A stretch of 64,000 nucleotides of DNA, taken from NCBI GenBank assembly GCA_049322915.1, contig JBMOPW010000001.1, positions 14,093-78,092 of the forward strand, given 5' to 3'. This DNA comes from Candidatus Zhuqueibacterota bacterium. Lineage in GTDB: Bacteria; Zhuqueibacterota; Zhuqueibacteria; Thermofontimicrobiales; Thermofontimicrobiaceae. Position 1 is the stretch's first letter, and each line of letters starts with the position of its first letter. The notes under the pieces were generated by a model, which was given only the letters and a program-made list of their open reading frames with translations, searched no databases and was not told where the DNA came from. Position numbers and translations under genes: made by a program. Below, piece after piece: positions 5,515 to 49,983 of this stretch.

Positions 5515-5590
5515 TTGACTTTTTTAAAAAGAGTTCTATATTAATCTGTAACAATTACAAAATGTAATTATGCTGATTGTAACAACTAAG
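5515..5590 (+). promoter_or_regulatory. Sigma70-type promoter plus PerR/Fur-type operator
   Basis: TTGACT(5515)-16 nt-TATATT(5537); palindrome TGTAA-CAA-TTACA at 5547-5559; further TGTAA half-sites at 5563 and 5578. Confidence 0.7.
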
Positions 5591-5859: not shown

Positions 5860-6315
5860 ATGAACTATGGTCAACTTGCAACGACGACGCACCTGCGAGA
5901 ATTGCTGGTTAAAAAAGGAGTGAAACCGTCTTTTCAGAGAGTATACATTTTGCAGTATATCATGAATTCGATAGCGCACCCTTCAGTGGATGAAGTTTAT
6001 AATGCACTGTACAATGAAATACCGACATTGTCCAAAACGACGGTGTACAACACGTTGAAAATGTTTGCTGAGAAGGGCCTTGTTTCTGCCCTCACGATTT
6101 CTGATACGGAAATGAGATATGATCATGCCGGAACGCGACATGCTCATTTCATGTGTCTTGTTTGCCACAGGATTTATGATATTCCATTGGAATCAAATTT
6201 ATTGACCATCGAGAAGATAGATGATCATGAGATAGTTCAAACTGAAATTTCGTTCAAAGGTATTTGCAAGTCGTGTCTGAATTCAAAATCCGATGAGCGT
6301 TCCATTGAAACCTAA
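5860..6315 (+). CDS. perR: Fur-family peroxide-responsive regulator (PerR type)
   Basis: HPS, TVYNTL helix, RYD-x5-HAH-x2-CxxC-x4-D (Asp as in PerR), C-terminal CxxC. Confidence 0.85.
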   Translation: MNYGQLATTTHLRELLVKKGVKPSFQRVYILQYIMNSIAHPSVDEVYNALYNEIPTLSKTTVYNTLKMFAEKGLVSALTISDTEMRYDHAGTRHAHFMCLVCHRIYDIPLESNLLTIEKIDDHEIVQTEISFKGICKSCLNSKSDERSIET

Positions 6316-6498: not shown

Positions 6499-7839
6499 AT
6501 GGAATGGCCTATTTTTCAGATGCCATTTATCGGTAATCGTTTGTTGGTAGCAATTGTCGGTGTGATTCATGTATGCATTTCGCACGGAATGGCCGTGGGG
6601 GGAAGCTATTTTATCGTGTTTCTCCACTACAAGTCTCTCCGTGAAAATGACATGAGACTGAATGAACTGGCCCTCAAGGTGCTACGGGTTTTTTTCATCG
6701 TTACAACATCATTTGGAGCGCTGACCGGAGTGGGCATTTGGCTCACAACAGCCACCGTCTCGCCCGTGACCATCGGCTCCATGCTGCGCATCTTCTTCTG
6801 GGTTTGGTTCATTGAATGGATCGTCTTTGTCTCCGAGGTTGTGTTGATCATGTTCTATTACCTGGGCTGGCAAAAATATGGTCCAAAGAAAGGCTTCAGA
6901 ATCGGGATCATCTACGTCGTCGTCTCGTGGCTGACCATGATGCTGATCACCGGCATTCTCGGCGCCATGCTGACGCCGGGAAAATGGCTGGCCACCCAAT
7001 CCGTCTGGGATGGCTTCTTCAATCCCACCTATCTGCCCCAGTTGATGAGTCGTACTTTTTTAGCGGCAATTTTGTCCGTGAGTTTCGGTCTGCTCATCAT
7101 GCGGTTCATGAAAAGCTACCGGGACATGTGGCCCAAAGTGTGGCGATTCGCCGGCATCAGCCTGATGGTGACCGCTCCCATCTATCTTTACGGCGTGCTC
7201 AGCTACTATCACGTCCTGCCGCAGCACATTGGCAACCTCATTCCCACCGCACTGATGACGCTGAAATTCTCCGCCTACGCCCATATCAGCAAACTGTACT
7301 ATCTGGTGACGATGCTCATCCTGTTCGTTTTTGGCGCGATTCTCCTGATCCGCAAAAAGGATTATGTCGTCATCTCCATCATCCCGATTATCCTGATGAT
7401 CGGCGCGGTAGGCCAGTTTGAACGGGTGCGGGAATTCATCCGCAAGCCGTTCACCATTCACGAGTACCTCTATTCCAACGCCATCCGCGCGGCGGAGCAG
7501 CCGTTTCTCGAAAAAGATGGCATTCTCAAATACGCTGGCTGGGCGGCTCGTTCAGCGAAAGAGACCGACCCAGTTCTGAGAAACGGCGAGATGATTTTCA
7601 AAGTGGAATGCTCCACCTGCCACACCTATACCGGCGTCAACGGCATCACCAAAAAGACCAACATCCTGCAGAGCCAGGAACTCAACGAAAATTTCCTCAA
7701 AACATACAAACGCTCCCATCCCTACATGCCTCCTTTCACCGGAACCGATGAGGAGCGAGTTGCGCTGGCCGCCTATCTGGATAAAATCGTGAAGCAGGCC
7801 CACGGCGTGAAAACACAACTGACGGAGGTGAAAAACTGA
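6499..7839 (+). CDS. CydA-like (cytochrome bd superfamily) membrane protein fused to a C-terminal monoheme cytochrome c
   Basis: Aligns by eye with the CydA in this window (GALTG, IEW..FVSE, MLTPG, REFIRKPF); CSTCH plus distal YMPPF; AGGAGG RBS. Confidence 0.8.
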   Translation: MEWPIFQMPFIGNRLLVAIVGVIHVCISHGMAVGGSYFIVFLHYKSLRENDMRLNELALKVLRVFFIVTTSFGALTGVGIWLTTATVSPVTIGSMLRIFFWVWFIEWIVFVSEVVLIMFYYLGWQKYGPKKGFRIGIIYVVVSWLTMMLITGILGAMLTPGKWLATQSVWDGFFNPTYLPQLMSRTFLAAILSVSFGLLIMRFMKSYRDMWPKVWRFAGISLMVTAPIYLYGVLSYYHVLPQHIGNLIPTALMTLKFSAYAHISKLYYLVTMLILFVFGAILLIRKKDYVVISIIPIILMIGAVGQFERVREFIRKPFTIHEYLYSNAIRAAEQPFLEKDGILKYAGWAARSAKETDPVLRNGEMIFKVECSTCHTYTGVNGITKKTNILQSQELNENFLKTYKRSHPYMPPFTGTDEERVALAAYLDKIVKQAHGVKTQLTEVKN

Positions 7840-7840
7840 C

Positions 7841-9127
7841 ATGGATATTTTACCCATCGATATTCCGCTCGATCTGCCAGCCGCACTATGGTTTTTGAAA
7901 TTTGTATTGATCGCTTTTTTCCTGCTGCACATCCTGTTCATCAATTTTATGATCGGGGGGACAATCTGGACGGTGTTCATGAAAATGCTGGGCCGCGAGG
8001 ATCCATTCTGGCACCGAGTGGCAAAGGATATTGGCAATACAGTCACGGTGAACAAGAGTCTCGCGGTCGTGCTTGGAATTGCGCCGCTGCTGACAGTCAG
8101 TCTGGTGTACACTCAGTTTTTCTATTCGGCCAACAATATCACAGCGCCTTTGTGGTTGTCCATCATCTGGCTGGTGCCGACAGCGTTCATCTCCCTTTAC
8201 ATTTTCAAATACACCTGGGATTCCCGACATTACAGCGAGAAATTCAAGTATTTCTGGGGCCTGCTGGCCGTCGCCATTTTCATGTTCGTGCCGCTGATTT
8301 TTCTTTCGAATATTAATTTGATGCTGTACCCGGATCAGTGGAAAAACGTGTACAATTTCTGGCAGGCCATCTGGGTACCCAATGTGCTGCCGCGCTATCT
8401 TCATTTCATGAATGCCAGTCTGGCCATCACCGGTTTTTTTGCCTATGGCTATTTTCATGTCAAAGGAAGGAACAAGCCGGACGATCTGGCCTATTACAAG
8501 CGGGCCAGTCGGCTGGGCATGAAGTGGGCGCTGTTCGCCACGCTGCTGCAAATGGTGTTCGGCGTTTTGAATTACGCGACTCTGCCCATGATCGCGGATT
8601 CGGCGCTGGTGTTGATTTTGATACTGATCACGGTTGTTATCGCCGGCATCGTGGTGTACCTGTTGTCGCTCAATTTATTCGCTGAAAAAAATATTCGTCC
8701 TGCGGTGATTCTGACGCTGGCGTTGATCGTGGTGGCTCTCATGGCCACGCAGCGTCATTTCATCCGGGAAAATGCATTGACAGAGCCGAAGAAAATGCTG
8801 GCCAATAAAACGGACATCTACCGAACGCGACTGGCGGCATTCCTGAAAAACTATTCGCCCACCGGGGAAATAAAGGTGACCGGACAGTCCATTTTTCAGG
8901 ATGTGTGCATGTCCTGTCACGCAATTGACCGGAAGGTGGTTGGCCCGCCCATGTCGTACGCGATTGATAAATATAAAAATACTCCGGATGCCATGGTCGC
9001 CTTTGTCAATAGTCCGAAAAAAGTGAATCCCGACTACCCGGTCATGCCCAAACCGCCGGTCTCGCCGGCTGAAATCGACATGGTGGTAGATTATTTATTA
9101 AACCTGGAGAAGGGAAAAAATGAATAA
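7841..9127 (+). CDS. Second, divergent CydA-like membrane protein fused to a monoheme cytochrome c
   Basis: LLHILF in TM1, LMLYP, PRYLHF (cf. CydA QRYTHT); CMSCH..VVGP and VMPKP. Confidence 0.75.
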   Translation: MDILPIDIPLDLPAALWFLKFVLIAFFLLHILFINFMIGGTIWTVFMKMLGREDPFWHRVAKDIGNTVTVNKSLAVVLGIAPLLTVSLVYTQFFYSANNITAPLWLSIIWLVPTAFISLYIFKYTWDSRHYSEKFKYFWGLLAVAIFMFVPLIFLSNINLMLYPDQWKNVYNFWQAIWVPNVLPRYLHFMNASLAITGFFAYGYFHVKGRNKPDDLAYYKRASRLGMKWALFATLLQMVFGVLNYATLPMIADSALVLILILITVVIAGIVVYLLSLNLFAEKNIRPAVILTLALIVVALMATQRHFIRENALTEPKKMLANKTDIYRTRLAAFLKNYSPTGEIKVTGQSIFQDVCMSCHAIDRKVVGPPMSYAIDKYKNTPDAMVAFVNSPKKVNPDYPVMPKPPVSPAEIDMVVDYLLNLEKGKNE

Positions 9128-9665
9128 GAAATTGCCCATGATATTGGCTGGTTTAGCGGTGGTGTGGATTGTTGCGGTCGTCGCACTGGTCTATGCCTCC
9201 CACCTGATCATCCACCGTTTCGGGCCGCTGCCTCAGCAGCCGATTCAATTTTCGCACACCACTCATGTCAACAAATTGAACATGGAGTGCCTGTATTGCC
9301 ACGCCGCCGCTGAGAAATCGATTCATGCGACCATTCCGGAAGGCGAGCTCTGTTACTCGTGCCACGAAGACGCCGATATCGACAAGCCCGAAGTGAAAAA
9401 AATGCTGGCCATGTTTGAAGCGCAGAATAAAATCTACTGGGATCGTGTCTACACGGTGAAAGATCACGTGTATTTCAGCCATCGCGTTCATACCATGGTC
9501 GCGAAACTGGAATGCCAGGAATGCCACGGCCCCATCGAGAATATGACAGTGGCGATTCGTTCATCCGGCGGGGCATCGGATCGGGGATTTCTGGAAATGG
9601 GCTGGTGCGTCACCTGCCATAAGAAACGCGGCGCCCCGCGGGAATGCATCACATGCCACAAGTGA
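9120..9665 (+). CDS. actA: Alternative complex III pentaheme cytochrome c
   Basis: N-terminal TM, QPIQFSH, five CxxCH, YFSHRVH, MGWC. Confidence 0.9.
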   Translation: MNKKLPMILAGLAVVWIVAVVALVYASHLIIHRFGPLPQQPIQFSHTTHVNKLNMECLYCHAAAEKSIHATIPEGELCYSCHEDADIDKPEVKKMLAMFEAQNKIYWDRVYTVKDHVYFSHRVHTMVAKLECQECHGPIENMTVAIRSSGGASDRGFLEMGWCVTCHKKRGAPRECITCHK

Positions 9666-9824
9666 AAATGGCCGCCGCCGATGGCGTCTCTCCATCCGTT
9701 TGATTGCGGCATTGGGTGGTGCGCGTTGCACGAAATGTAGTTTGTACCTGGACATAGAAAACTGACGAAGCTCTCATCGAATGATTTCGAATGTGAACTG
9801 AGTCAGAAATGAGGAGAAGTGAAC

Positions 9825-12704
9825 ATGAATTTGGATAGACGAGATTTCATAAAATCATTGGGGTCATTGAGCCTGGTGATGGTGCCGGATCTCAGCCAGG
9901 GCCCGTTGCGGAAATTATTCCCGATGCTGATTCCGGCTGAGGAGATCATCCCGGGCGTGCCGTACTGGTATGTGTCGACCTGCCGCGAGTGCCCGGCTGG
10001 CTGCGGCGTTTTGCTCAAAGTCCGCAATGACAATGTGATCAAAATAGAAGGGAATCCCAACCATCCGGTCAATTGCGGCGGACTCTGTGCCCGCGGACAG
10101 GCGGCGCTTCAGGAATTGTACAGCGCAGAGCGGCTGCAAGCGCCCATGAAAATTCCGGCCTCTGGCCCGCGCGAGCGAACCACGTGGGATGCTGTCATTC
10201 CTGAGTTGAAGGCGAAGATGGGCGCCGGCAAAACCGTCGTGCTCAGCGGCGATCTTTCCGGCAGCCAAAAATCCTTTGTGGAAAAATGGATTGCAGGAAT
10301 CGCCGGCAACGCTGAACTTGTCATGTACGAGCCGTTCCATCGGGCCGGCTATCGCCGGGCGAACGAGATTGTGTTCGGTAAAAATGTGGATTCCAGGTAT
10401 CATCTCGATAAAGCGGATTATGTGTTGTCTTTCGGCGCTGATTTTATGGAAACCTGGCAATCGCCTGTTGCATTGAGCCGCGACTTTTCCGATGCGCGGC
10501 GATTCAGAAATGGCCGGTCGGCAAAACTGGCGTACGTGGGAATCGCCGACAGCATCACCGCCACAAACGCCGATGAAGAGTACAAAATTAATCCGCTGTC
10601 CGAGACCGTGCTGCTGCTGGCGCTGGCCAGTCAGTTGCTGGAGAAAAATTCCAGGCTGAACATGGAAAGCCGGGAGAGGCAACGCTGGCGGTCTCTTCTC
10701 GGGAAATACACGCCGGAATTGGCCGCGGAATATTCCGGGCTGACGGTTCAGAACGTGGTTCATCTGGCTGAGCAATTGCTGGCGTTCAAAAACAGCGTCC
10801 TGCTTTGCGGCGAATCGCTGGCTGCTCATGAACATGCCACAGCGTCGCTCGTGGCCGCCAATCTGGTCAATTACTTTGCCGGCAATTACGGCGTCACTAT
10901 TTCGCTGGGCAGCCCGGACGCGACCGTTGGTTCCATGACTGCGCTGGAGCAGTTGCTGCGCGAGATGGAAGCCGGACAGGTCGCTCACCTCATCATGTAC
11001 AACACCAATCCGGCGTTCACCTATCCGGACAGGGAGCGGTTGGCTGCGGCCTTCAAAAAAGTCGGACTGAAAATCGCCCTGGCCACGACGCCCAACGAGA
11101 CGACGGAATTGGCGGATTACGCACTGCCGGTCTCCCATGCCATTGAAACGTGGGGCATTGAATCCCCGCAGCCCGATGTATTTTCGCTGGTTCAGCCGGG
11201 AATGAAACCGGTGTTCGATTCAAAGCCCATGGAAGAGGCGCTGATTGCCCTGGCGCCTGTGGCATCGCTGCCGGACTCGCTGGAGAAATTTATCGAAGAT
11301 GAATGGCAATCCATTTTCCGGCTGAAACCGGCGGCATCGTCGTTTCCTGACAACTGGAAAGAATTGCTATTGACCGGGGGAGTCTGGCTAACGAGCGAAG
11401 CCGTACCGCCTGCGCCAGCGCTTTCTTCGCGATTGTCCGGCTATCTGAATGCCCTGGCGATGCCGGAAAAATCGGCTGGTGTTGCGCTGCTTGTCAATTT
11501 CAGCCATCGCTTTTTTGACGGCCGCGGCGCCAATAAACCCTGGCTCTGGGAGGTGCCCAATGCCCTGTCTCACACGGTGTGGGATACTCCGCTCCGAATT
11601 CATCCGAAACGCGCCGAGCCACTGGCCCTGAAGGAAGGCGACATCGTCGCCATTTCGGCCAATGGCCGCACCATCGAAGCGCCGGTCTTGCTGACGGAGC
11701 ACGTCCATCCGTCTGTCGTTGCCATGGAATTCGGCGCCGGGCATGCGCATTACGGCGCTGCGGCTGTCAAAGAGACCGGCAATCCGTGGCTGCTGCTCTC
11801 CGGCGCCGGGGACGACAATGGCGATGTGATGCTGGTGACCCGGGATATTCAGATGAAAAAGACCGGCAAATGGCGCAAGCTGGTCCGAATTCAGGGCGGC
11901 TATGACCAGGGCGAGCGCAACATCATCCAGCAGATGCATTTAGACCATGCCATTCAACTCGAAAATAGTCACGCGAAGCGGATCGAGCCGCATCATCCGC
12001 AGATTTATCCAGTGCACGAGCACAAGAAATACGACTGGACCATGGTGGTTGACCTGTCCGCATGCATCGGCTGCGGCGCGTGCGCTGTGGCCTGTTACGC
12101 TGAAAATAACCTGGCAACGGTCGGCAAAACTCAATGCGACAATGGCCGGGAAATGGCATGGCTGCGCATCGAGCGGTTTGATGTGGACGGCCGTTCGCGG
12201 TTCATCCCGGTGATGTGCCAGCACTGCGAAAATGCGCCGTGCGAAACGGTCTGCCCTGTCTACGCCACAGTGCACAGCGACGAAGGGCTCAATGTGCAGG
12301 TGTACAATCGCTGCGTGGGCACACGGTATTGCTCGAACAACTGTCCCTACAAAGCGCGACGGTTCAATTTTTTCCATTACACATGGGAGGAACCGGCAAA
12401 ACGTCAGCTCAATCCGGACATTTATCATCGGCCCAAAGGCGTCATGGAAAAGTGCACGTTTTGCGTGCATCGGATTCGAAAGGCCAAAGAAGACGCCAAA
12501 TTGGAGGGCCGCGTTGTGGCCGATGGTGAGGTGATGCCGGCATGCGCTCAGTCCTGTCCGACGCAGGCGATCACCTTCGGCAATATCAATGATCCTGAAA
12601 GCAAAGTCTCGAAACTGCTGCATGATTTCAGGGGTTATCAACTATTCGAAAATTTGAACACCCAACCCTCGGTCATCTATCTAAAAGGGATTAAACATGA
12701 ATAA
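9825..12704 (+). CDS. actB: Alternative complex III ActB (molybdopterin-oxidoreductase-like domain fused to NrfC-type Fe-S domain)
   Basis: Tat signal RRDFIK; CRECPAGC..CARG; CIGCGAC, CQHCENAPC, CVGTRYCSNNCPY, EKCTFC. Confidence 0.9.
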   Translation: MNLDRRDFIKSLGSLSLVMVPDLSQGPLRKLFPMLIPAEEIIPGVPYWYVSTCRECPAGCGVLLKVRNDNVIKIEGNPNHPVNCGGLCARGQAALQELYSAERLQAPMKIPASGPRERTTWDAVIPELKAKMGAGKTVVLSGDLSGSQKSFVEKWIAGIAGNAELVMYEPFHRAGYRRANEIVFGKNVDSRYHLDKADYVLSFGADFMETWQSPVALSRDFSDARRFRNGRSAKLAYVGIADSITATNADEEYKINPLSETVLLLALASQLLEKNSRLNMESRERQRWRSLLGKYTPELAAEYSGLTVQNVVHLAEQLLAFKNSVLLCGESLAAHEHATASLVAANLVNYFAGNYGVTISLGSPDATVGSMTALEQLLREMEAGQVAHLIMYNTNPAFTYPDRERLAAAFKKVGLKIALATTPNETTELADYALPVSHAIETWGIESPQPDVFSLVQPGMKPVFDSKPMEEALIALAPVASLPDSLEKFIEDEWQSIFRLKPAASSFPDNWKELLLTGGVWLTSEAVPPAPALSSRLSGYLNALAMPEKSAGVALLVNFSHRFFDGRGANKPWLWEVPNALSHTVWDTPLRIHPKRAEPLALKEGDIVAISANGRTIEAPVLLTEHVHPSVVAMEFGAGHAHYGAAAVKETGNPWLLLSGAGDDNGDVMLVTRDIQMKKTGKWRKLVRIQGGYDQGERNIIQQMHLDHAIQLENSHAKRIEPHHPQIYPVHEHKKYDWTMVVDLSACIGCGACAVACYAENNLATVGKTQCDNGREMAWLRIERFDVDGRSRFIPVMCQHCENAPCETVCPVYATVHSDEGLNVQVYNRCVGTRYCSNNCPYKARRFNFFHYTWEEPAKRQLNPDIYHRPKGVMEKCTFCVHRIRKAKEDAKLEGRVVADGEVMPACAQSCPTQAITFGNINDPESKVSKLLHDFRGYQLFENLNTQPSVIYLKGIKHE

Positions 12705-14040
12705 GGAAAATTACTTTTCTCCCATGCTCACCGCTGATGATATCAACCGCCGGGTACTCGATCCAATCCGCAAGCCGGGAATCGGTTTCTATTTGCTGAT
12801 GCTGCTATTCCTGAGCTTTGTGGCGTTTGGCGTGACATGTCTGGGGTTGCAGATATTCAAGGGGCTTGGACTTGCCGGGATAAATAACCCGGTCGGCTGG
12901 GGCATTTATCTGGTGAACTTCGTCTTCTGGGTTGGAATTGCCCATTCCGGAACGCTCATCTCTGCGATACTCTATCTCTTCCGATCTCGTTGGCGAACCA
13001 GCGTCAATCGGATTGCCGAAGCCATGACCGTATTTGCCGTGATGATGGCCGGCCTTTTCCCGCTGATTCATGTCGGGCGAATCTGGTTTGCCTACTGGCT
13101 TTTCCCGTATCCCAACGCGCGAACCCTGTGGGTGAATTTCCGCTCACCGTTGAACTGGGACGTATTCGCCGTGTCCACGTACATGACGGTGAGTACGTTG
13201 TTTTTCATCGTCGGCATGATCCCGGATATGGCCGTATTGCGGGACAGATTCAAAGGGTTGCGCAGCAAAATTTACGGCGTCTTCGCGTTGGGCTGGCGTG
13301 GCACGCACAAGCAATGGCATCATTATGAGACTGCCTACATATTGTTCGCGGCGCTGGCCACGCCGCTGGTGATTTCAGTTCACAGCATCGTGTCGTGGGA
13401 TTTCGCCATGTCGGTGCTGCCCGGCTGGCATAGCACTATTTTCGCGCCCTATTTCGTCGCCGGGGCCATTTTCTCCGGCTGCGCCATGGTCATCACCATC
13501 CTTTTCCCATTGCGCAAAGTTTTTCATCTGGAGGAACTCATCACCGAAAAACATTTCACCCGCCTCTCGCAAATGATGCTGCTGACGTCGCTCATCGTCA
13601 CCTATTCGTACGCAACGGAGTTTTTCATTGCCTGGTACGGGCATAATATTTTTGAACAGGATTCCTTTTACAACCGCGCGTTCGGATTTTATGGCCCCTA
13701 TTTCTGGGCCATGTTGTTCTGCAATTCGATTTTACCCATGTCCATCTTCTTCAAAAAAATCCGGACGAATGTGAAAATCCTGTTCACCATTTCCATTTTC
13801 GTGAATATCGGCATGTGGCTGGAGCGATTTGTCATTATCATCAGTTCACTTGCCCACGACTTCGATCCCTACTCCTGGGGAAAATACGCGCCGACCTATA
13901 TCGAATGGGGCGTGTTCATCGGCAGCGTCGGCGGATTTTTAATCCTGTTTTTCTCCTTTGTGAAATTTGCGCCGGTCGTGGCAATCAGCGAGGTCAAAGG
14001 ACAAATTCACCATGATGTTCATGGAGGTGCGCATGACTGA
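12697..14040 (+). CDS. actC: Alternative complex III ActC (NrfD/PsrC-family quinol-site subunit)
   Basis: NFVFWVGIAHSGTLISA, NFRSPLNWD, SVHSIVSWDFA..PGWHST. Confidence 0.92.
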   Translation: MNKENYFSPMLTADDINRRVLDPIRKPGIGFYLLMLLFLSFVAFGVTCLGLQIFKGLGLAGINNPVGWGIYLVNFVFWVGIAHSGTLISAILYLFRSRWRTSVNRIAEAMTVFAVMMAGLFPLIHVGRIWFAYWLFPYPNARTLWVNFRSPLNWDVFAVSTYMTVSTLFFIVGMIPDMAVLRDRFKGLRSKIYGVFALGWRGTHKQWHHYETAYILFAALATPLVISVHSIVSWDFAMSVLPGWHSTIFAPYFVAGAIFSGCAMVITILFPLRKVFHLEELITEKHFTRLSQMMLLTSLIVTYSYATEFFIAWYGHNIFEQDSFYNRAFGFYGPYFWAMLFCNSILPMSIFFKKIRTNVKILFTISIFVNIGMWLERFVIIISSLAHDFDPYSWGKYAPTYIEWGVFIGSVGGFLILFFSFVKFAPVVAISEVKGQIHHDVHGGAHD

Positions 14041-14566
14041 GATGAAGAAACGTGTGAAATCAGTGTATTCTGATTATGGTAAATTCATCGCTGCGTTGAA
14101 ATTGCTGGCAACGAAATCGGGTCTGGACATGGAAGTGTTTTCGCCCATGCCGCTGCATGATGTGGAAAAAATTCTGCCGCAAAAGCCAAGTCCGGTGCGC
14201 TGGTTCACTTTTGTGGGTGGCTTGCTTGGGATGAGCATCGGATTCGGTTTCCCGATTTATACAGTGTTGCAGTGGCCGCTCATCACCGGCGGAAAGCCGG
14301 TGGTCACGATACAGGTTTTCATCATCATCGCTTTTGAATTGCTTATCCTGTTCGGCGCCATCTTCACACTGATCGGATTGCTGATCACTGCCCGGCTGCC
14401 CCGCGGCAAGCTGGCCAATTACGATACGCGATTTTCAGAAAACTCTTTTGGTATGATTATCAGGACGGATCCGGCCAACGTGGCGGAGCTTCGCGATATT
14501 CTGAAACAGGCGGACGATCTGGCCGTCGATGATGTGGAAGTGCTCGCTGTCGGCGCCAATGCCTGA
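14033..14566 (+). CDS. actD: Alternative complex III ActD (DUF3341)
   Basis: FSPMPLH, WPLITGGKP, AFELLIL, YDTRFS; 8-nt overlap with actC. Confidence 0.88.
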   Translation: MTEMKKRVKSVYSDYGKFIAALKLLATKSGLDMEVFSPMPLHDVEKILPQKPSPVRWFTFVGGLLGMSIGFGFPIYTVLQWPLITGGKPVVTIQVFIIIAFELLILFGAIFTLIGLLITARLPRGKLANYDTRFSENSFGMIIRTDPANVAELRDILKQADDLAVDDVEVLAVGANA

Positions 14567-14690
14567 CAGCGCGGCTGACCCGGGCGCAGAAGCCGATGGA
14601 CGCCCCAAAAAGGAGTGGCTCGATGCGAGTCCGATCGGCGTCACCACCGGAAGCGATACTCAAAACCATTTTACAGAGGTAAGCTCATGA
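14559..14690 (+). pseudogene. 43-codon ORF at the actE position, possible in-frame deletion scar
   Basis: MPDSAADPGAEADGRPKKEWLDASPIGVTTGSDTQNHFTEVSS*; overlaps actD stop (ATGCCTGA) and actF start (ATGA); no CxxCH or lipobox. Confidence 0.45.
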
Positions 14691-15790
14691 GAGACAATAA
14701 TGCATTGCTAAAAAATATACGAATCATTGTTGCGGCCTTCATTCTGGCAGGTATCTTTTTTATAGTTCGGGGCGGAGCAGGCGACTATCCCGTCCGAATG
14801 TGGCAGATTTATCTCGTCAATTTTCTGCTGTGGACCGGCATTGCTCAGGGAGGCGTTGTTTTCTCCGCCATTCTGGAAGTGACCAATGCCCGCTGGGGAA
14901 AGCAGATGCGCCAGGTGGCGGAATCCTTCGTGGTGTTTCTGCCGCTCTCGCTCATCCTGCTGCTGGTTATGCTCCTCGGCGCTGACCATATTTTCCCCTG
15001 GATCTCCAAAGTGCCCATCTCCGAAGAGAAGCGAATTTATCTCAATCTGCCCTTTCTGTTTGGACGCGCCTTCCTTGGCCTGGGGCTGTTGACATTGCTT
15101 AGCTTCACGTTCATTCGGAAACGGCGCAGCGCGGACATCGGACAGGGGGAGCGCCCCCGAAAATTAGCTGTGGGCTTGCTGATTATCTACGCGATTGTCT
15201 ATACATACATTTCCTTTGATTTTATCATGTCGTTGGCCCCGCACTGGTACAGCACCATCATGGGAATGCATTTCTTCACCGCCTGTTTTTACACCGGCCT
15301 GGCCGTGATCACCGTGTCCGCTGTATTCGGCCGATGGTCTCTGTTCCCTAAAGACTTCATGAGCCAGAGCGATTTTCATGATCTGGGCAAATTGCTGTTC
15401 GGATTTTCCATTTTCTGGATGTCGCTGCTGTGGTCGCAATTTCTGGTTATCTGGTACGGCAATATCCCTGAGGAGACAGAATTCCTGCATCTCCGCTTGT
15501 ACGAGCTCCCCTGGAAATCATTCACCTGGGCGGTCATTGTGCTTGGATTCATCGTGCCGCTGGTGATTCTGCTCAACAAAAAAGGGAAGACCACACAGTT
15601 TGTCATTGGCGCAGTGGGGCTGCTCATTTTGATCGGCTCCTTTTTTCATGTCTACATACTCATCGTTCCATCATTGAATCCGCACCATCTATATTTTGGG
15701 CTGAGCGAAATATTGATCTCATCAGGCTTTCTTGGATTGTTCATCATCAGCCAGGATATCGGGCTGAAGCGTCTGCCAATTGCCGAGTGA
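14687..15790 (+). CDS. actF: Alternative complex III ActF
   Basis: FDFIMSLAPHWYST, HDLGKLLFGF, SQFLVIWYGNIPEET. Confidence 0.88.
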   Translation: MRDNNALLKNIRIIVAAFILAGIFFIVRGGAGDYPVRMWQIYLVNFLLWTGIAQGGVVFSAILEVTNARWGKQMRQVAESFVVFLPLSLILLLVMLLGADHIFPWISKVPISEEKRIYLNLPFLFGRAFLGLGLLTLLSFTFIRKRRSADIGQGERPRKLAVGLLIIYAIVYTYISFDFIMSLAPHWYSTIMGMHFFTACFYTGLAVITVSAVFGRWSLFPKDFMSQSDFHDLGKLLFGFSIFWMSLLWSQFLVIWYGNIPEETEFLHLRLYELPWKSFTWAVIVLGFIVPLVILLNKKGKTTQFVIGAVGLLILIGSFFHVYILIVPSLNPHHLYFGLSEILISSGFLGLFIISQDIGLKRLPIAE

Positions 15791-15873: not shown

Positions 15874-15900
15874 AAAAAGCCCAATCCGGGCTTTTTTTTT
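15874..15900 (+). terminator. Intrinsic terminator after actF
   Basis: AAAAAGCCC-AATCC-GGGC followed by T9. Confidence 0.8.
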
Positions 15901-16082: not shown

Positions 16083-16520
16083 ATGCAATTATCCCGGGCA
16101 GGGGAATATGCGGTGCGTGCGATGCTTCATCTGGCCGCCATGGAAAATAAAGGCGTCAGCCAGATTCCAGCGATTTCCAAAATTTGGGATGTGCCGGAAA
16201 GTTTCCTGCGCAAAATTTTGAATTCCCTGGTTAAAGCGCAACTGGTGATTTCCATGCGGGGGACAGGCGGTGGATTTCTGTTGGCCCGTGCGGCGAGCGA
16301 TATTACGCTCCTGGATATTTTTGAAGCCATCGAGGGGAAGGTGTATCTGAACCAGTGCCTCGTCGGGCCGGGGTCATGCAAGAACAGAACCTGGTGCCCG
16401 GTTCACGACGTCTGGCGCGAGGCGCAAAAATCGTTCACCGATGTGCTGAGCCGGAAGAGCCTGGCGGATATGGTGTCCAATCCTGAATTTAAAAGCCGTT
16501 TCGAAAAAATGTTGGAATGA
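16083..16520 (+). CDS. Rrf2-family regulator with IscR-like Fe-S ligands
   Basis: EYAVRAM, RGTGGGF.LAR, C-x5-C-x5-C-x2-H. Confidence 0.9.
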   Translation: MQLSRAGEYAVRAMLHLAAMENKGVSQIPAISKIWDVPESFLRKILNSLVKAQLVISMRGTGGGFLLARAASDITLLDIFEAIEGKVYLNQCLVGPGSCKNRTWCPVHDVWREAQKSFTDVLSRKSLADMVSNPEFKSRFEKMLE

Positions 16521-16689
16521 CGACGTGTATCCAATCCTGAATACAATGCGCGAATGAAAGATTCACAAAAAGCAAAGGAGAATTCTTTATGACCTGAGGG
16601 AGAGCGATTTTTTTCTCTGCTGTTTCACAAACTGTATCAAAACATAGCTACTGAGCTGCACAAACACGGATTACTTTAGGGAGGTAAAA

Positions 16690-18015
16690 ATGGATCCAGT
16701 ATTTTTGTCGCGTTTGCAATTTGCTTTTGCCGCTGGCTTTCATTTTCTGTTTCCCCCATTGACAATGGGATTGACATTAATCATATTTATTCTTGAAAGC
16801 CTCTATCTGAAAAAGGGCGAGGAAGTCTATAAAAATGTATCCGATTTTCTCATCAAAATTTTCGCCCTGGTTTTTGTGTTGGGAACCGCCACCGGAATTA
16901 CGCTTGAATTCGCGTTCGGTACCAACTGGTCCAATTATTCGAGAATGGTGGGCGATATCTTTGGCGCGCCTCTGGCTGCTGAAGGTGTGTTCGCCTTTTT
17001 CATGGAATCTATCTTTTTAGGCATTCTGATTTTCGGTCGCAACAAAGTCTCCAAAAAGATGTACCGTCTGTCGGCCTTTTTAGTGTTCTTCGGCGCGCAT
17101 CTTTCCGGGCTGTGGATTATCATCGCCAATTCGTTCATGCAGACGCCGGCCGGGTATGCCATCGAAGGCGGCCGGGCGGTGCTGACTGACTTTTTTGAAG
17201 CGGCCATCAACCATTCGACAATTCAACGCTATACGCACACCATCGTCGGCGGCTGGATTACCGGCTCGCTGCTGGCAGCCGGCATTGGCGCCTGGTATGT
17301 ACTCAAAAATAAACATCTGGATTTAGCAAAAAAATTAGTGCAGGTGTCTCTGGTTGTCTTTATTGTCGCCGGAGTATTGCAATTACTCACCGGCCACCAG
17401 CATGGCATTCAGGTCGGGAAAACGCAACCGGCGAAATTGGCCGCGTACGAAGGACTCTGGGAAACACAGCAAGGAGCCAGTCTGAGTCTGTTCGGCATCC
17501 CGGATGAAACAAAGGAGACGACCCATCTCAGCATCGGCATTCCCAAACTGCTGAGCATTTTTGTCTATCTGGACCCCAACGCTGAAATCAAAGGGCTGAA
17601 AGATTTTCCGAAAGATGAACGTCCGCCGGTTCTCATTTCCTTCACGACGTACCATATCATGATAATCCTGGGGACGTTATTCGTGCTCATTGCTGTCATC
17701 GCGGCGTTTCTGCTGTGGAAGGACAAATTATGGGAGACGAAGTGGTTCCTGTATGCGCTGCTGTTCTCCATTCCGCTGCCGCACATTGCCAATCAAACCG
17801 GGTGGATGGCCGCAGAAATTGGTCGCCAGCCCTGGGCAGTTTATGGCGTGCTGAAGACCGCGGACGCGGCGTCCGTCGTTGTTCCGGCCGGACAAATTCT
17901 GTTCACGCTCATCATGTTCATTCTCATCTATGCATTTCTTTTCTGGATCTTCATCAAACTATTGTTGAAAATGGTACGCAAAGGCCCTTCGGAATTAACC
18001 GGTTACAGCTATTAA
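16690..18015 (+). CDS. cydA: Cytochrome bd quinol oxidase subunit I (short Q-loop)
   Basis: SRLQFA, FHFLFPP, EFAFGTNW, QPAKLAAYE, AEIGRQPW. Confidence 0.96.
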   Translation: MDPVFLSRLQFAFAAGFHFLFPPLTMGLTLIIFILESLYLKKGEEVYKNVSDFLIKIFALVFVLGTATGITLEFAFGTNWSNYSRMVGDIFGAPLAAEGVFAFFMESIFLGILIFGRNKVSKKMYRLSAFLVFFGAHLSGLWIIIANSFMQTPAGYAIEGGRAVLTDFFEAAINHSTIQRYTHTIVGGWITGSLLAAGIGAWYVLKNKHLDLAKKLVQVSLVVFIVAGVLQLLTGHQHGIQVGKTQPAKLAAYEGLWETQQGASLSLFGIPDETKETTHLSIGIPKLLSIFVYLDPNAEIKGLKDFPKDERPPVLISFTTYHIMIILGTLFVLIAVIAAFLLWKDKLWETKWFLYALLFSIPLPHIANQTGWMAAEIGRQPWAVYGVLKTADAASVVVPAGQILFTLIMFILIYAFLFWIFIKLLLKMVRKGPSELTGYSY

Positions 18016-18030
18016 ACAAGGAGGATGAAA

Positions 18031-19029
18031 ATGGATTTATATCTTTTACAGAATATCTGGTATATCCTGGTCGGCGTGTTGCTGATGGGATATGCAATTC
18101 TTGACGGATTTGACCTGGGGGTTGGTTCGCTGCTGCCGTTCTTGGGCAAGAATGAAAAAGAAAAACGCGCGTTGTTAAATACAGTCGGGCCTTTCTGGGA
18201 TGGCAATGAAGTCTGGCTGCTGACCGGCGGTGGCGCACTCTTCGCCTCGTTCCCCCATGCATACGCGACGGTCTTCAGCGGCTTTTACCTGGCCCTGATG
18301 CTGGTGCTGTTCGCATTGATTTTCCGGGCAGTTTCCATGGAGTTTTACGCCCACGATGACGAGCGACGAACATTCTGGCAATGGGCTTTCGTCGTCGGCA
18401 GCTTGCTGCCGTCGCTGCTGTACGGCGTGGCGCTGGGCAATGTCATTCTCGGCGTTCCACTGGATGTGAACAAGGAATTCACCGGGAATTTCTTCACGCT
18501 GCTGCGACCATTCCCATTGGCCATTGGTCTCCTCGGATTGAACGCGATTCTGTTGCAGGGCAGCACCTACGCCGCATTGAAAACCTCCGGCGATATTCAG
18601 GCCAGAGCGAAAAAACTGGCCAACTCTCTCTGGCTGTCGTTCATCGTGCTGTTCATCCTCGCGTCGGTTCTCGCATTTCTCATGGTGCCTGGCTCAGCCA
18701 CCCGGATTTTGGCCTGGCTGGCTACGATCGTCGTTCTTGCTGCATGGGTCATGATTAAATCATCGCTGAGCAAAGGCAAAGAAGTGATGGCGTTTTTGAT
18801 GTCGTCTCTCGTGTTTGTCGGACTGTGGGGAATTGTCGGCGCCATTCATTTCCCCAACCTGGTGAAAGCAAGCAACGATGCAGCGCTCAGTCTGACCATT
18901 GTCAATGCTTCATCCACCCAGCTCACGCTGACAGTCATGCTGATCATCGCCTTGCTGGGGATGCCGCTGGTTTTACTGTATACCTATTACATTTTCAAAG
19001 TGTTTAAAGGCAAAGTGGAAGCTGCATAA
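18031..19029 (+). CDS. cydB: Cytochrome bd quinol oxidase subunit II
   Basis: LDGFDLGVG, GPFWDGNEVWL. Confidence 0.96.
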   Translation: MDLYLLQNIWYILVGVLLMGYAILDGFDLGVGSLLPFLGKNEKEKRALLNTVGPFWDGNEVWLLTGGGALFASFPHAYATVFSGFYLALMLVLFALIFRAVSMEFYAHDDERRTFWQWAFVVGSLLPSLLYGVALGNVILGVPLDVNKEFTGNFFTLLRPFPLAIGLLGLNAILLQGSTYAALKTSGDIQARAKKLANSLWLSFIVLFILASVLAFLMVPGSATRILAWLATIVVLAAWVMIKSSLSKGKEVMAFLMSSLVFVGLWGIVGAIHFPNLVKASNDAALSLTIVNASSTQLTLTVMLIIALLGMPLVLLYTYYIFKVFKGKVEAA

Positions 19030-19050
19030 TTCATTCATTCAGAATTTTTC

Positions 19051-19086
19051 AAAGGCTGGAACAACTGCTGTACGTTCCAGCCTTTT
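19051..19086 (+). terminator. Intrinsic terminator after cydB
   Basis: Stem AAAGGCTGGAAC / GTTCCAGCCTTT with T-rich tail. Confidence 0.75.
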
Positions 19087-19190
19087 CTATTTGATTCCCG
19101 TTTAAAATTAAATCGCGGTCTGGATGAGCCGATTGCACGCGCTCAAGCTAATAAACCGGATTCCTTTGAGAAATGAAAAATAAATTTAAC

Positions 19191-19219
19191 TTGATTTTGT
19201 AATTATTTTAAATTATATT
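19191..19219 (+). promoter_or_regulatory. Promoter with a Per-box-like operator in the spacer
   Basis: TTGATT-17 nt-TATATT; TTGTAATTATTTTAA lies within it; 19-bp exact reverse-complement copy at 46711. Confidence 0.75.
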
Positions 19220-19261
19220 TGGTTTAAATTGAATTTGTTATCATATCGTGTGGTGAACAGA

Positions 19262-19681
19262 ATGGAATACTACAAAAATATCCTGATTGAAAAAGGAATC
19301 AAACCGACATTCCAGAGAATGAAGATTTTAGAGTTCCTTGATAAAACAGATATCCACGCCACCGTCGATATGATTTATGCCTCGTTGTTCAGAAAAGTGC
19401 CGACGCTCTCCAAAACGACCGTTTACAACACGCTGGATGTTCTCAGAAAACACGGACTGGTCAACGTTTTGACGATCACTGAATCGGAGCTACGGTACGA
19501 GTACTTTCATGAAATCCACCATCATTTCCTTTGTAGAAATTGCAGGCAGATTATTGATTTGCATGTGAAATGTACCTACGAAGAAATGATGCAGATTGAA
19601 GGACATAAAATAGAAGAGATCCATGGATATTTTAAAGGAGTCTGCAGAGACTGTCTCGGCAAAATGAATAACAGTGAATGA
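19262..19681 (+). CDS. Second Fur-family (PerR-like) regulator
   Basis: PTLSKTTVYNTL shared with 5860; HHHFLCRNC..IID; C-terminal CRDC. Confidence 0.88.
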   Translation: MEYYKNILIEKGIKPTFQRMKILEFLDKTDIHATVDMIYASLFRKVPTLSKTTVYNTLDVLRKHGLVNVLTITESELRYEYFHEIHHHFLCRNCRQIIDLHVKCTYEEMMQIEGHKIEEIHGYFKGVCRDCLGKMNNSE

Positions 19682-19702
19682 TTTATTTTCGAGGAGGTTT
19701 GT

Positions 19703-20203
19703 ATGGCTGAAGCGAAGGTTCTGGATATTTTGAAAGGCGCGATATTGCTGGAGAAAAAGGGGAAGGTGTTCTATGAAAAGACGGCTGCTCAAACAGAAAG
19801 CGCCGCTGTTCGGGAAGTGTTTGAAACGATGGCAAAGGAGGAAGACCATCACGTGGAAATTCTCACCAACCAGTTTGAATCCTACAGGAAGAACGGTCGC
19901 CTGGCAGCGCTGAAATATAATGCCAGTCCCGAACCGGTGAGTAATGCCGTCCTGACGCGACAGATTCGCGACGAGATCCATGCTTCAAGCTACGAAGCTG
20001 CGGCGATTTCAGCGGCGATGGCCATGGAGGATAAAGCGGTCGCCTATTATTCGGGAAGAGCCCATGCGACGGACGATGCCGAAGAAAAGAGGCTATACGA
20101 GTGGTTGGCAATCTGGGAAAAAACACACCTGCAATTCTTGAGTGATATCGATAAAGAACTTCAGCAAAATGTATGGTACGATAATCAATTCTGGCCCATG
20201 TAA
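19703..20203 (+). CDS. Ferritin-like / rubrerythrin-family di-iron protein without rubredoxin domain
   Basis: Two E...ExxH pairs (EEDHH, WEKTH). Confidence 0.85.
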   Translation: MAEAKVLDILKGAILLEKKGKVFYEKTAAQTESAAVREVFETMAKEEDHHVEILTNQFESYRKNGRLAALKYNASPEPVSNAVLTRQIRDEIHASSYEAAAISAAMAMEDKAVAYYSGRAHATDDAEEKRLYEWLAIWEKTHLQFLSDIDKELQQNVWYDNQFWPM

Positions 20204-20378
20204 AATTGCCCCGAATTTTTGAATCACCGGGAGCATCGCAGCAGCTCGTTGGATTATTGCGGACAGCACAGCGCGATGAAGTGAATGGAGCATGATCCGA
20301 AAATTGTAACTGCTGAAAGATGATAACTGAATTGTCAAAATAACACCCGTAACTATTTTATCGACAGGAGGAGTAGTA

Positions 20379-20885
20379 ATGAAAAAGATGACAGAGAAAT
20401 CCCTGCAGGAAGCGTTTGCTGGCGAATCCATGGCTCACATGAAATATCTCATTTTCAGCGATGTGGCTGAGAAAGAAGGATTCCCCAAGATTGCCAAATT
20501 GTTCAAAGCGATCGCCTATGCGGAACAGGTTCATGCGACAAACCATGCGCGTAACCTGGGATATATCAAATCAACGTCGGAAAATCTGATGACCGGAATT
20601 GAAGGTGAGTCATTCGAAGTGGATGAAATGTACCCGGCCTACGACGCCATTGCAAAATTGCAGGGCGAAAAAGCCGCCGAGAAATCTATTTTCTATGCTG
20701 TAGAAGCTGAGAAAATTCATGCGGAATTCTATAAACAAGCCAGGAAAAAAGTCGAGAGCAAAAAGGACTTTGTCCTGGAATCGGTGTATATTTGCCCGGT
20801 CTGCGGCTTTACCCACATTGACGATGATTTGCCGGAATTCTGCCCGGTCTGCGGCGTGTCCAGTGAAAAATTCAAAAAGTTCTAG
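20379..20885 (+). CDS. rbr: Rubrerythrin
   Basis: AFAGES, AEQVHA, EMYP, AEKIHA, CPVCG..CPVCG. Confidence 0.93.
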   Translation: MKKMTEKSLQEAFAGESMAHMKYLIFSDVAEKEGFPKIAKLFKAIAYAEQVHATNHARNLGYIKSTSENLMTGIEGESFEVDEMYPAYDAIAKLQGEKAAEKSIFYAVEAEKIHAEFYKQARKKVESKKDFVLESVYICPVCGFTHIDDDLPEFCPVCGVSSEKFKKF

Positions 20886-20907
20886 GACCGAATAGAATGG
20901 AGTCGAC

Positions 20908-20951
20908 AAAAGGCTGTTTACCGGAATGATTTCCTGAATGGCCTTTTTTTT
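20908..20951 (+). terminator. Probable intrinsic terminator
   Basis: Imperfect stem AAAAGGC..GCC followed by T8. Confidence 0.55.
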
Positions 20952-21376
20952 CATACAGCAGTGTTCTCAGAAATCAATGGCCTCGTTGGAAATTACCGGG
21001 GTTGAATCATTTTTCATTGGAAATCATCTAAGAATTACATCTAAAAAATGTAGTTACTCAGGCATGTTTTCTTGCCGCAAAGACTCCAAGTCACGAAGTT
21101 ACACGAAGATGTCAATTTCTTAGTCAATTGTTTTAAAACCAAATTTAACTTTTAAGAATTCATTCTTTTAGTTGTTTCTTTTTCTTTGTGCCTTTGAAGC
21201 TTCGTGGCTGAAGAGTTTCAAAATGAATTATGTAACCTGAAAAGAATGGCCATTTCAATTGCGGAGCGGAGTTAGCAAATCGACTGGTGAAAAAAAGCCG
21301 GCGGACAGTATATTTGGCCGGCAGCGCTTCAACCCCGCGCTGGAATGTCTTGATGAAAAGGAAAGGAAAATTGACC

Positions 21377-21985
21377 ATGATTAAAATGTACATAGGTATC
21401 GCGATGCTCATGATGGGCGTTGTATTCACAATGGACGGAATGGCCGGTGAGAAGAGCCAGCCGGAGGAGAACACGAGCATGCATTCAATTTACGATTTTA
21501 CAGTGAAGGACATTGATGGCAATGAAGTGAAACTGGATCGCTACAAAGGCAATGTCGTCCTCATTGTCAATGTGGCCAGCAAATGCGGTTTCACATCGCA
21601 GTACGAAGGGCTGCAAGAGATTTACGCGAAGTACAAAGAACTGGGATTTGTGGTGTTGGGCTTTCCGGCCAATAACTTTTTAGGTCAGGAGCCGGGGACC
21701 AATGAGGAGATCAAACAGTTCTGTTCTGCAAAATACAATGTCACGTTTCCCATGTTCTCCAAGATTTCTGTGAAAGGGAAAGATATAGCCCCGTTGTATA
21801 AATTTCTGACCGAGAAGGAGTCGAACAAGGAATTTGCCGGCGACATCGGTTGGAATTTCAACAAGTTCCTGGTGAACAGGGAGGGCAGAGTTGTCGGGCG
21901 TTTCGATTCCCGCACCCGTCCTGACAGCGAGAAGATGATTCGCGCCATTGAGCAGCATTTGAATGCCGCGTCGGATGCGAAATGA
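21377..21985 (+). CDS. Glutathione-peroxidase-family (Cys-type) peroxidase with signal-peptide-like N-terminus
   Basis: NVASKCGFT, GFPANNFLGQEPG, WNFNKFL; active-site codon TGC. Confidence 0.93.
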   Translation: MIKMYIGIAMLMMGVVFTMDGMAGEKSQPEENTSMHSIYDFTVKDIDGNEVKLDRYKGNVVLIVNVASKCGFTSQYEGLQEIYAKYKELGFVVLGFPANNFLGQEPGTNEEIKQFCSAKYNVTFPMFSKISVKGKDIAPLYKFLTEKESNKEFAGDIGWNFNKFLVNREGRVVGRFDSRTRPDSEKMIRAIEQHLNAASDAK

Positions 21986-22372
21986 TAGCGCCGGGCGGAG
22001 TGCGATTTTTAATGTTTCATGCCGGTCTGATCGGCGTGAATGAAGCCGGTCTGTACCGCCCTTCGTGAGCGTGCCGCGCTGTTCAGCGGCTATTTCAATG
22101 ATCGTTCAGGATATTTATCCCGAACGGTGCGACTATCCGGGGACATACGTTCCAAAATATTTACCACGCTGGATACATATCCAGCGCGATCAGGTTCCCG
22201 CTAAAAACATGTGACCGAAGGGAATGCCTGTGGTACGGGAATGACAGCATTCTATGAATGCGTTTTTAAAATCTTCAAACCTTATATAAATTTCTGAAAT
22301 GGTGTACTTAGCGCTTTTGTGGCTATTGCATCAGCCTGGTGAAAATGAATCCATATTGTCTGGAGGTGTTAC

Positions 22373-23268: not shown

Positions 23269-23415
23269 CATTTCAATTTCGAATGTCTTGCAATTGCAGT
23301 CGCACAGCGATTGGCCTGTTCCGATGCTGTTCCCGGTTACATCAGGAGTTCATTTGAGTAGCGAGTGTTGGATAAAGTTGTTGACAGAGAAACATGCAAA
23401 GCGGAGGATTTGTTC

Positions 23416-25113: not shown

Positions 25114-25228
25114 GTCGCTCCATCGGCGTCAGAACAGAGCAGCCGTGCGCATCGGCAACGGTTGGCGCGCTGAAATCACCTGAAAAGTGAAAAAATATTC
25201 CAAGCGTATCAGATTGATTTTTCTTGGA

Positions 25229-44158: not shown

Positions 44159-44170
44159 GAGTTCATTTAA

Positions 44171-49961: not shown

Positions 49962-49983
49962 AACTTAATGGAGGGTTCCTGAA

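Follow-up and report, generated by a model that had tools for sequence, protein, structure and literature searches.

A run of genes on the forward strand of a 64,000-nucleotide stretch of Candidatus Zhuqueibacterota bacterium DNA (GCA_049322915.1, contig JBMOPW010000001.1, positions 14,093 to 78,092; hereafter the window) places two proteins that resemble CydA of cytochrome bd oxidases, here called subunits A and B, directly before the genes of an alternative complex III (ACIII). We propose that A, B, actA, actB, actC, actD and actF probably encode one copper-free respiratory unit, in which electrons pass from quinol through ACIII to the haem c of B, then to A and finally to O2. Confidence in the whole is lower than in either part because it combines the coupling of ACIII to the A/B pair, which is highly probable, with the choice of O2 as the acceptor, which the conserved residues make likely. 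The unit is likely to serve low-oxygen respiration or oxygen scavenging, and the many oxidative-stress genes in the window were counted in favour of such an oxygen-related role. The operon would bring a donor, an adaptor and a putative oxidase together in one seven-gene cassette; this conserved block is shared by two bacterial lineages and is a candidate for a new wiring of oxygen respiration.

Subunit A is the putative O2 reductase of the unit and would carry its oxygen site. The CydA family models in Pfam and NCBIfam match neither A nor B, and neither protein matches PF01654 or PF02322; A matches Geobacillus CydA weakly, with an E value of 3e-4 as a single sequence and of 9e-12 as a profile. 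The AlphaFold model of A (predicted local distance difference test, pLDDT, 88.5) superimposes on Escherichia coli CydA with a Z score of 28.1 and a root-mean-square deviation of 3.1 Å over 309 residues, and the top ten Foldseek rows for A are CydA in every case. The model of B (pLDDT 89.2) reaches a Z score of 26.9 and 3.0 Å over 304 residues against Geobacillus CydA. For both models the similarity to CydA is far above that to any other fold, which places both proteins within the CydA fold. A contains eight membrane helices, in the model and by hydropathy, and ends in one CxxCH motif of a His/Met class I haem c. Helices 6 and 7 are joined by a loop of about 14 (A) or 9 (B) residues, versus about 88 in the CydA of the window; the Q-loop is thus missing from both. 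An initial annotation of the window had likened the two proteins to Q-loop-less, cytochrome c-fused CydA relatives, and the description fits the published OR-C1a/OR-C1b pair.

The residues expected of an oxygen site are strictly conserved in A. R14, H24, H29, E106, E113, E312, R315 and CxxCH/M410 are kept in 81 of 81 aligned homologues, and H24 and H29 are the two invariant histidines outside haem c. By alignment, H24 corresponds to Geobacillus H21 and E106/E113 to E101/E108, and the two channel glutamates are separated by six residues, as in OR-C1a. E312 and R315 line up with Geobacillus E378 and R381, in a part of the profile alignment that falls below threshold. We take Geobacillus E378 to be a haem ligand and H186 to be the b558-site histidine. 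A three-way alignment that included the CydA of the window was too weak for residue mapping. OR-C enzymes are widespread: A has at least 1205 homologues, and the closest labelled ones come from candidate division KSB1.

What is the function of the second CydA-like protein? Subunit B has eight long helices in the model and seven by hydropathy, and its single C-terminal CxxCH belongs to a His/Met haem-c domain behind a 50-residue helical stalk (predicted template modelling score, pTM, 0.74); the haem-c domain of A is better fixed (pTM 0.87). H30 in helix 1, the equivalent of the active-site histidine, is present in 77 of 77 paired B proteins, and the conserved helix-3 glutamate is absent from B, so that the proton-channel glutamates are missing. 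The two CydA-like genes of the initial annotation therefore share the fold but are not equivalent, as only A has the channel glutamates. H188 of B lies at about the position of the b558 histidine, and positions 188 and 301 co-vary (His/Met in 66 of 77, Glu/Tyr in 10 and Phe/Ala in 1), which is suggestive of H188 and M301 as His/Met ligands of a b haem in B. The Glu/Tyr proteins are all from Bacteroidota (L072, L075, L040, L054, L082, L062, L051, L035, L076 and L032), and in this OR-C1b subgroup of ten, His188, Met301 and His306 are jointly replaced by Glu, Tyr and Gln. The covariation is suggestive rather than a statistical proof because these ten probably represent one event. In two genomes B carries additional haem-c domains, three in total at L206:3840-5937 and two at L018:7322-8875, as would be expected of an input arm. 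At L019:11305-12563, B is broken into two frames (221 and 206 amino acids, aa), through either a sequencing error or a real break.

A structural model of the complex points to ActA as the partner of B. It was built from B (a 39-row alignment, 10 rows of which were ACIII-linked), ActA (19 rows) and four haems, and it scored 0.75, versus 0.00 for the best of three controls. This mark is reached by 116 of 157 solved pairs and by 2 of 215 mismatched pairs, counts that are only roughly valid for our own alignments with haems added. Repeat runs share at least 78% of their contacts, and the partner pLDDT is at least 76. In the model, the membrane helix of ActA packs onto helices 6-7 of B; the corresponding helix of Rhodothermus marinus ACIII has almost no neighbours within the membrane (PMC5928083). 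The haem-c domain of B (residues 358-359, 365-367 and 399-406) is predicted to contact residues 47-59, 77-86 and 137-147 of ActA, an area that surrounds haem motifs 1 and 2. The contacted end of ActA would be the exit of its haem wire because the unpaired fifth motif, that of entry haem I, lies only eight residues from motif 4; the wording of the literature is ambiguous here, and the opposite reading is possible. W16 of ActA faces G269 of B in the model. Position 16 of ActA is Trp in 14 of 14 linked operons and Tyr in 5 of 5 operons in which B stands without A, and position 269 of B is Gly or Ala in 10 of 10 linked proteins, whereas 51 of 67 unlinked ones have Leu, Val or Ile there; this pattern is not independent of the docking model. 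To our knowledge, no complex of this type of pair has been solved. The model supports B–ActA binding, short of showing it, and it speaks for the physical link between ACIII and the bd-like pair that the initial annotation had raised.

Among the loci scanned, the A-B-actA order is confined to one subclade and is fixed within it. In a genome scan for relatives of A, in which the best 80 of 595 loci were kept, every one of the 10 loci whose A is at least 49% identical has the order A-B-actA, compared with 0 of the 70 whose A is 34-41% identical; two of the latter have another ACIII nearby. The subclade was defined as 17 genomes: the 10 scan loci, the host, three more from the host's phylum and three from the phylum of the Abyssubacteria record. 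All 17 contain A-B-actA, and the seven-gene order lies on one contig in 13, the other four being cut by contig ends with the remaining act genes on another contig; these counts are not independent because the genomes are related and mostly incomplete. The subclade covers 9 of 11 genomes of the second phylum, 7 of 167 of the host's phylum and one record titled Gemmatimonadota. Conserved co-occurrence with act genes, which the initial annotation had made a point to check, thus holds here. ActC of these operons forms one clade (11 rows, support 97/96), and its division into two sub-branches parallels that of B; the block is therefore inherited as a unit. Flanking genes vary freely around the conserved seven genes, and B and actA overlap or nearly abut in most loci. 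A metagenome scan with B added five close loci from outside the 17 genomes, with actA next in all of them.

B is also found without A. Among 167 genomes of the host's phylum, 11 encode a lone B, a full-length relative that has no A upstream and sits immediately behind ctaB at the end of a caa3-type cox operon. These proteins are about 430 aa long, carry one C-terminal CxxCH and are 24-31% identical to B; one of them is divided between two contigs. In 9 of the 11 the next gene is actA, the contigs of the remaining two end there, and no ActE-like gene was seen in the five longer lone-B loci inspected. The lone B has lost H188, H306, R305 and mostly R309, and H30 is kept in 4 of 5. In a quick tree of B (69 rows, including 28 unlinked B drawn at random and leaving out the split L019), the lone B groups with ACIII-linked B versus the 28 unlinked B, with full support in the Shimodaira–Hasegawa-like approximate likelihood ratio test (SH-aLRT 100) and on a long branch. 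Because of this long branch, a hidden Markov model control of the membrane domain was added, in which 27 of 27 lone-B-like sequences, 22 of them without genomic context, score higher on the linked-B profile than on four unlinked-B profiles. The lone-B loci are L139, L140, L141, L143, L145, L153-L162, L169 and L182, in which the protein bears the database names "cytochrome c" or "hypothetical"; remoter relatives are labelled Ignavibacteriaceae or Bacteroidota. M. roseus MROS_0033, termed a soluble c551/c552 in PMC3534657, is a candidate for such a protein.

The lone-B operons indicate that the gene preceding actA is conserved while the terminal module before it is swapped, being either A or a caa3-type oxidase. 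B thus looks like a socket that replaces ActE, and these operons point to an overlooked accessory subunit of ACIII. In a fuller form, which we advance tentatively and rate slightly below an even chance, B would be a CydA-fold socket that has become structural in an ActE-less ACIII, would form a stable supercomplex together with A, and would in sister lineages, after the loss of A and of its internal haem ligands, feed a caa3-type oxidase from ACIII. If so, the system would be a copper-free counterpart of a complex III–IV assembly and would contain the first identified donor of an OR-C enzyme, and a terminal-oxidase paralogue would have been recycled into an interchangeable adaptor.

The ACIII part of the operon comprises ActA, ActB, ActC, ActD and ActF but no ActE. 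H125, S150, D155, D235 and R377 of ActC correspond to H139, S164, D169, D253 and R395 of R. marinus, the first four being listed as quinol-site residues alongside R395 (PMC8076601). In ActB the lipobox cysteine is missing, and four cysteines near the N terminus are retained (53, 56, 60 and 88; window 9825-10100). This four-cysteine motif is missing from the solved ActB structures and is present in 11 of 11 related subclade ActB proteins displayed. Within the host's phylum it is also seen in ACIII next to a lone B, in cbb3-linked ACIII and in some ACIII that have ActE; it may possibly bind an extra iron–sulfur (Fe-S) cluster. The ActD of the operon is the only ActD match in the host genome. CxxCH is absent in all frames from actC to about 300 bases beyond actF, so that there is no actE, and nine related loci contain only three short stray CxxCH frames, none of them in the ActE position. 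The absence of actE, as first annotated, extends to these loci. The cluster was filed as an ActE-less ACIII because ActE is dispensable and not universal (PMC8552683).

The following route for electrons is consistent with these observations. As in characterised ACIII, ActC would oxidise quinol and electrons would pass through the Fe-S cluster to the haem wire of ActA. B would take the place of ActE, with its helices 6-7 on the ActA helix and its stalked haem c receiving the electrons of ActA. These would reach A, which may form a dimer with B as suggested by family precedent and the 1-nucleotide gap between the genes, through the fixed haem c of A, the putative His188/Met301 b haem of B, or both. 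At a bd-type two-haem site, A would then reduce O2 to water with cytoplasmic protons delivered via Glu106/Glu113, by analogy with the bd superfamily. The chain of the initial annotation, from quinol through ACIII and fused c haems to a bd-type site, retains the support of the folds, the OR-C resemblance, the linkage and the modelled docking; it has to be amended in that A and B are unequal and that B can stand without A.

In the host genome, which is 96% complete, cytochrome b of bc1, COX2 and NrfA gave no match with the queries used, and the sole COX1-family gene encodes 747 aa with motifs like those of quinol-dependent nitric oxide reductase (qNOR); NCBIfam gave no name, and from motifs and length we take it to be qNOR-like. 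Only two of the 17 subclade genomes (G137 and G171) yielded an O2-reducing haem-copper subunit I, two further subunit-I matches of 760-770 aa being assigned to qNOR by length only; G171 has a cbb3-like oxidase with a second ACIII. The host also contains a CcmF-like protein (motif match) and two MenA-like prenyltransferase genes (L189 and L190), and possibly relies on imported naphthoate.

Several observations weigh against the proposed unit, in addition to the sub-threshold E312 match, the rough calibration of the docking score and the relatedness and incompleteness of most genomes. The b558-site histidine is not kept in A, which has an extra invariant histidine, His29. The docking model covers B and ActA only; the ActA helix borders the quinol cavity in ACIII of Roseiflexus castenholzii (PMC7439408), which bears on the steric fit with A, ActC and ActD. 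In 70 of the 80 OR-C loci there are no act genes in this order, and the OR-C pair therefore does not need ACIII. In one subclade genome (L012/G137), an A-type haem-copper oxidase directly after actF is a competing acceptor, and CydB is matched in 12 of the 17 genomes. MenD and MqnA/D were not found in the host with the queries used. Finally, the literature search found no report of an enzyme assay on an OR-C protein, and the assignment of O2 reduction therefore rests on conserved residues.

Could the same wiring serve another acceptor? A quinol-fed detoxifying reductase of H2O2 or NO is unlikely, although a PerR-like gene and a palindrome lie upstream, the window encodes rubrerythrins, glutathione peroxidase, superoxide dismutase (SOD) and AhpC, A carries the extra His29, the host already has two ordinary CydAB, and catalase and NO activities are attributed to bd oxidases (cited in PMC12342949). 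However, only 2 of 14 genomes carry perR upstream of A, a qNOR-like gene is present separately in the host, and four incomplete genomes (G168, G170, G175 and G178) give no match to CydB or to an O2-reducing haem-copper oxidase. The non-haem iron of nitric oxide reductases is bound by three histidines, for which the two invariant histidines of A outside haem c are too few. More doubtful still is a function of the A/B pair as a membrane relay that extends the ACIII wire to a different periplasmic acceptor, for example a haem-copper oxidase, where one exists, or a multihaem cytochrome. The lone B without H188 and H306 beside caa3-type genes shows that the fold is able to become a haem-c carrier, a cox operon follows actF in L012, and the host encodes several multihaem cytochromes. 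A relay needs no proton channel, whereas H24, E106, E113, E312 and R315 of A are kept without exception, and an O2-reducing haem-copper oxidase was not seen in 15 of the 17 genomes.

It is very improbable that the pair and ACIII are merely co-regulated in an oxygen-response island, with electrons, if any, moving via soluble carriers. Independent O2-defence genes abound in the window, most OR-C pairs occur without ACIII, and in other bacteria a soluble cytochrome c551 or auracyanin joins ACIII to its partners. Against this, conservation stops at the seven-gene block, beyond which the neighbours vary, B and actA overlap or nearly abut in most loci, the trees are congruent and the docking model passed. 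Least probable is that the act genes run in reverse like Qrc, with menaquinone being reduced by electrons from the c haems of A and B. The compact ActA does align over the QrcA model, the best NCBIfam matches of ActB are QrcB/QrcC, and its four-cysteine motif is missing from solved ACIII. However, every Qrc score is below cut-off, ActD and ActF are present, ActB is fused, His125 of ActC corresponds to His139 of ActC, unlike the Asp of QrcD, the four-cysteine motif is shared with ActE-bearing ACIII of the phylum, and no donor site is evident in A or B. We therefore retain the copper-free unit that ends in O2 reduction as the preferred reading.

The gene run (Table 1) was present on the forward strand as initially annotated, from perR through two CydA-like genes and actA-B-C-D-F to a terminator, and the coordinates confirm the 8-nucleotide overlap of B with actA. 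A frame-wise CxxCH search and a gene scan likewise uphold the earlier statement that actE, cydB and a haem-copper oxidase gene are lacking in the run. The intergenic distances are 183 nucleotides between perR and A, 1 between A and B, -8 between B and actA, 159 between actA and actB, -8 between actB and actC, -8 between actC and actD, and 120 between actD and actF. Transcription of the seven genes together with perR is plausible. A consensus terminator scan did not list the hairpin 3' of actF. An Rrf2 gene and an ordinary cydAB lie downstream of the run, behind a promoter-like site of their own.

Table 1. Genes and signals of the A/B–ACIII run, in window coordinates
Feature	Position	Strand	Evidence
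Sigma70-like promoter followed by palindrome (5547-5559)	5515-5561	+	Promoter 10/12; possible Fur/PerR-type operator
Fur-family regulator, PerR-like	5860-6315	+	PF01475 E 4e-23; best NCBIfam matches are PerR models, all below cut-off
Subunit A (OR-C1a type, putative O2-reducing)	6499-7839	+	446 aa, CSTCH at 371, Met410
Subunit B (OR-C1b type, predicted ACIII-docking)	7841-9127	+	428 aa, CMSCH at 356, Met402
actA, compact pentahaem cytochrome c, one N-terminal membrane helix	9120-9665	+	5 CxxCH; ACIII ActA structures match best
actB, fused B1-B2, Fe-S domain, twin-arginine-like signal	9825-12704	+	Best solved matches ACIII ActB, E 2e-129
actC, quinol-binding membrane subunit	12697-14040	+	R. 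marinus ActC match E 5e-141
actD	14033-14566	+	PF11821 E 4e-38
actF, second NrfD-type membrane subunit	14687-15790	+	PF03916 E 1.5e-8; same position in related loci
Terminator-like hairpin with 9-T tail	~15874-15900	+	Sequence; fold -13.7 kcal/mol

The regulatory surroundings are local features. Of the 14 subclade genomes in which the DNA before A extends to 1.4 kb or more, only 2 carry perR there; the G+C content of perR is 40%, compared with 50-53% in the operon. The promoter and palindrome are retained in the same-genus locus L015, and the palindrome (up to two mismatches) was not found upstream of A in eight other loci checked; judged from these searches, the element is local to this genus. 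The palindrome pattern has one exact match in the 6.25-Mb genome, its own site, and 36 one-mismatch matches, a uniqueness that is circular because the pattern was derived from the site itself. A PerR regulon found no support, as the palindrome has no second match in the window despite the many stress genes there. Neither perR nor the neighbouring cydAB was accepted as part of the module, the former on its 2/14 occurrence and the latter because it was seen only in this window, in L015 and, distantly, in L146. The placement behind perR and next to a conventional CydAB, given in the initial annotation, is thus accurate for this genome but is not a conserved property of the module.

Other features of the window and of related loci are recorded here. 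A dense oxygen-defence cluster (16083-22000 and 51301-58583) contains Rrf2, cydAB, a second Fur/PerR gene, rubrerythrins, glutathione peroxidase, SOD, AhpC and a ferredoxin-thioredoxin reductase-like gene. Five Nqr/Rnf-like genes (B, C, D, E and F-like) lie at 41663-45945, with no NqrA-like gene among the scanned open reading frames (ORFs), and a similar set follows actF in L146. Succinate dehydrogenase/fumarate reductase flavoprotein and Fe-S genes occupy 23365-26072, and none of the ORFs of 150 aa or more there encodes a membrane anchor. At 48492-51165, a cytochrome with five CxxCH precedes a beta-barrel-like protein with a single CxxCH; the two may form a porin–cytochrome pair. The host has a second OR-C pair (L004, G000:C20:6745-10475) in reversed order and with no act genes, in which a haem-less B (357 aa) precedes an A with eight CxxCH (886 aa); up to eight haems are given for Desulfovibrionia in a table legend (bioRxiv 10.1101/2021.01.16.426971). 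In L012:11031-12801/L152, a small metal-binding-like gene, a sco-like gene and an A-type cox I gene stand directly after actF, and the L012 genome also carries a lone-B/ACIII operon (L145).

How new is this system? The initial annotation had called it a candidate new respiratory chain, and the concept is less new than first stated because a bd-like OR-N5 pair beside ACIII (PMC12342949) and ActE-less ACIII (PMC8552683) are already in print; the OR-C link itself was not found in the literature searched. A search of accessible text, with key figures and supplements outside it, retrieved no OR-C linked to ACIII, no B as a docking subunit and no lone B, and the accessible parts of 10.1101/2020.07.02.185504, PMC10732223, PMC10579370, PMC5492636, PMC5317091, PMC3362086, PMC3534657, PMC7439408 and PMC13059093 do not describe an OR-C–ACIII operon. 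The operon makes three questions testable: whether OR-C enzymes reduce O2, how a bd-type site receives electrons when quinol and haem b558 are both missing, and whether protons are pumped by ACIII, which has been proposed and is unconfirmed (PMC13059093). We reason that without pumping by ACIII the chain would save no more energy than the adjoining CydAB, and its retention is itself a clue.

The OR-C family is in print from sequence only (10.1101/2021.01.16.426971), and the pair described here shares with OR-C1a/OR-C1b the adjacent CydA paralogues, eight helices, missing quinol site and C-terminal CxxCH, as well as an "a" subunit with and a "b" subunit without channel glutamates; cytochrome c was proposed there as the donor. 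The available text names no specific donor or ACIII link, whereas the present subclade is fixed before actA-B-C-D-F and B is predicted to bind ActA. Compared with canonical CydAB (6RKO, 5DOQ/5IR6 and window 16690-19029), A has the fold and the equivalents of H19, E99/E107 and E445, but the pair has fused c haems and no Q-loop or CydB, and A has no b558 histidine. QrcABCD of sulfate reducers is similar in its compact multihaem A, molybdopterin-fold B and NrfD-type membrane subunit, but it has four subunits with separate B and C and no ActD or ActF, and it reduces quinone (PMC13059093).

The closest arrangement is that of Nitrospirales, in which act genes also adjoin a Q-loop-less bd-like pair, OR-N5 CydAA', the two being thought to have been acquired together (PMC12342949); OR-N enzymes are proposed to oxidise cytochrome c (PMC10839748). 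There, the order is actA-B1-B2-C-D-E, with ActE and without ActF, and the pair is downstream. The present operon has ActF but no ActE, its ActB is a fusion, and its bd-like pair lies upstream and carries c haems of its own. By description, OR-N5 is also set apart by about ten helices (Murali), versus eight plus a cytochrome c domain here. The ACIII–caa3/aa3 supercomplexes of R. marinus and Flavobacterium johnsoniae (PMC5928083, PMC8552683; 6F0K, 6BTM) share ActA/B/C/D/F, the quinol-site and gate residues, and the direct hand-over from haem c to the terminal oxidase without a soluble carrier. The present system differs from them in lacking ActE, a sixth ActA haem, a copper oxidase and the ActB lipobox cysteine, and in having four N-terminal ActB cysteines and a CydA-fold partner. 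ActE is likewise missing from the ACIII of Pelobacter carbinolicus, Sphaerobacter and Geobacter M21, and its replacement by another monohaem domain has been suggested for P. carbinolicus (PMC8552683). In the operon described here, the proposed replacement is instead a CydA-fold membrane subunit that would form half of a putative oxidase.

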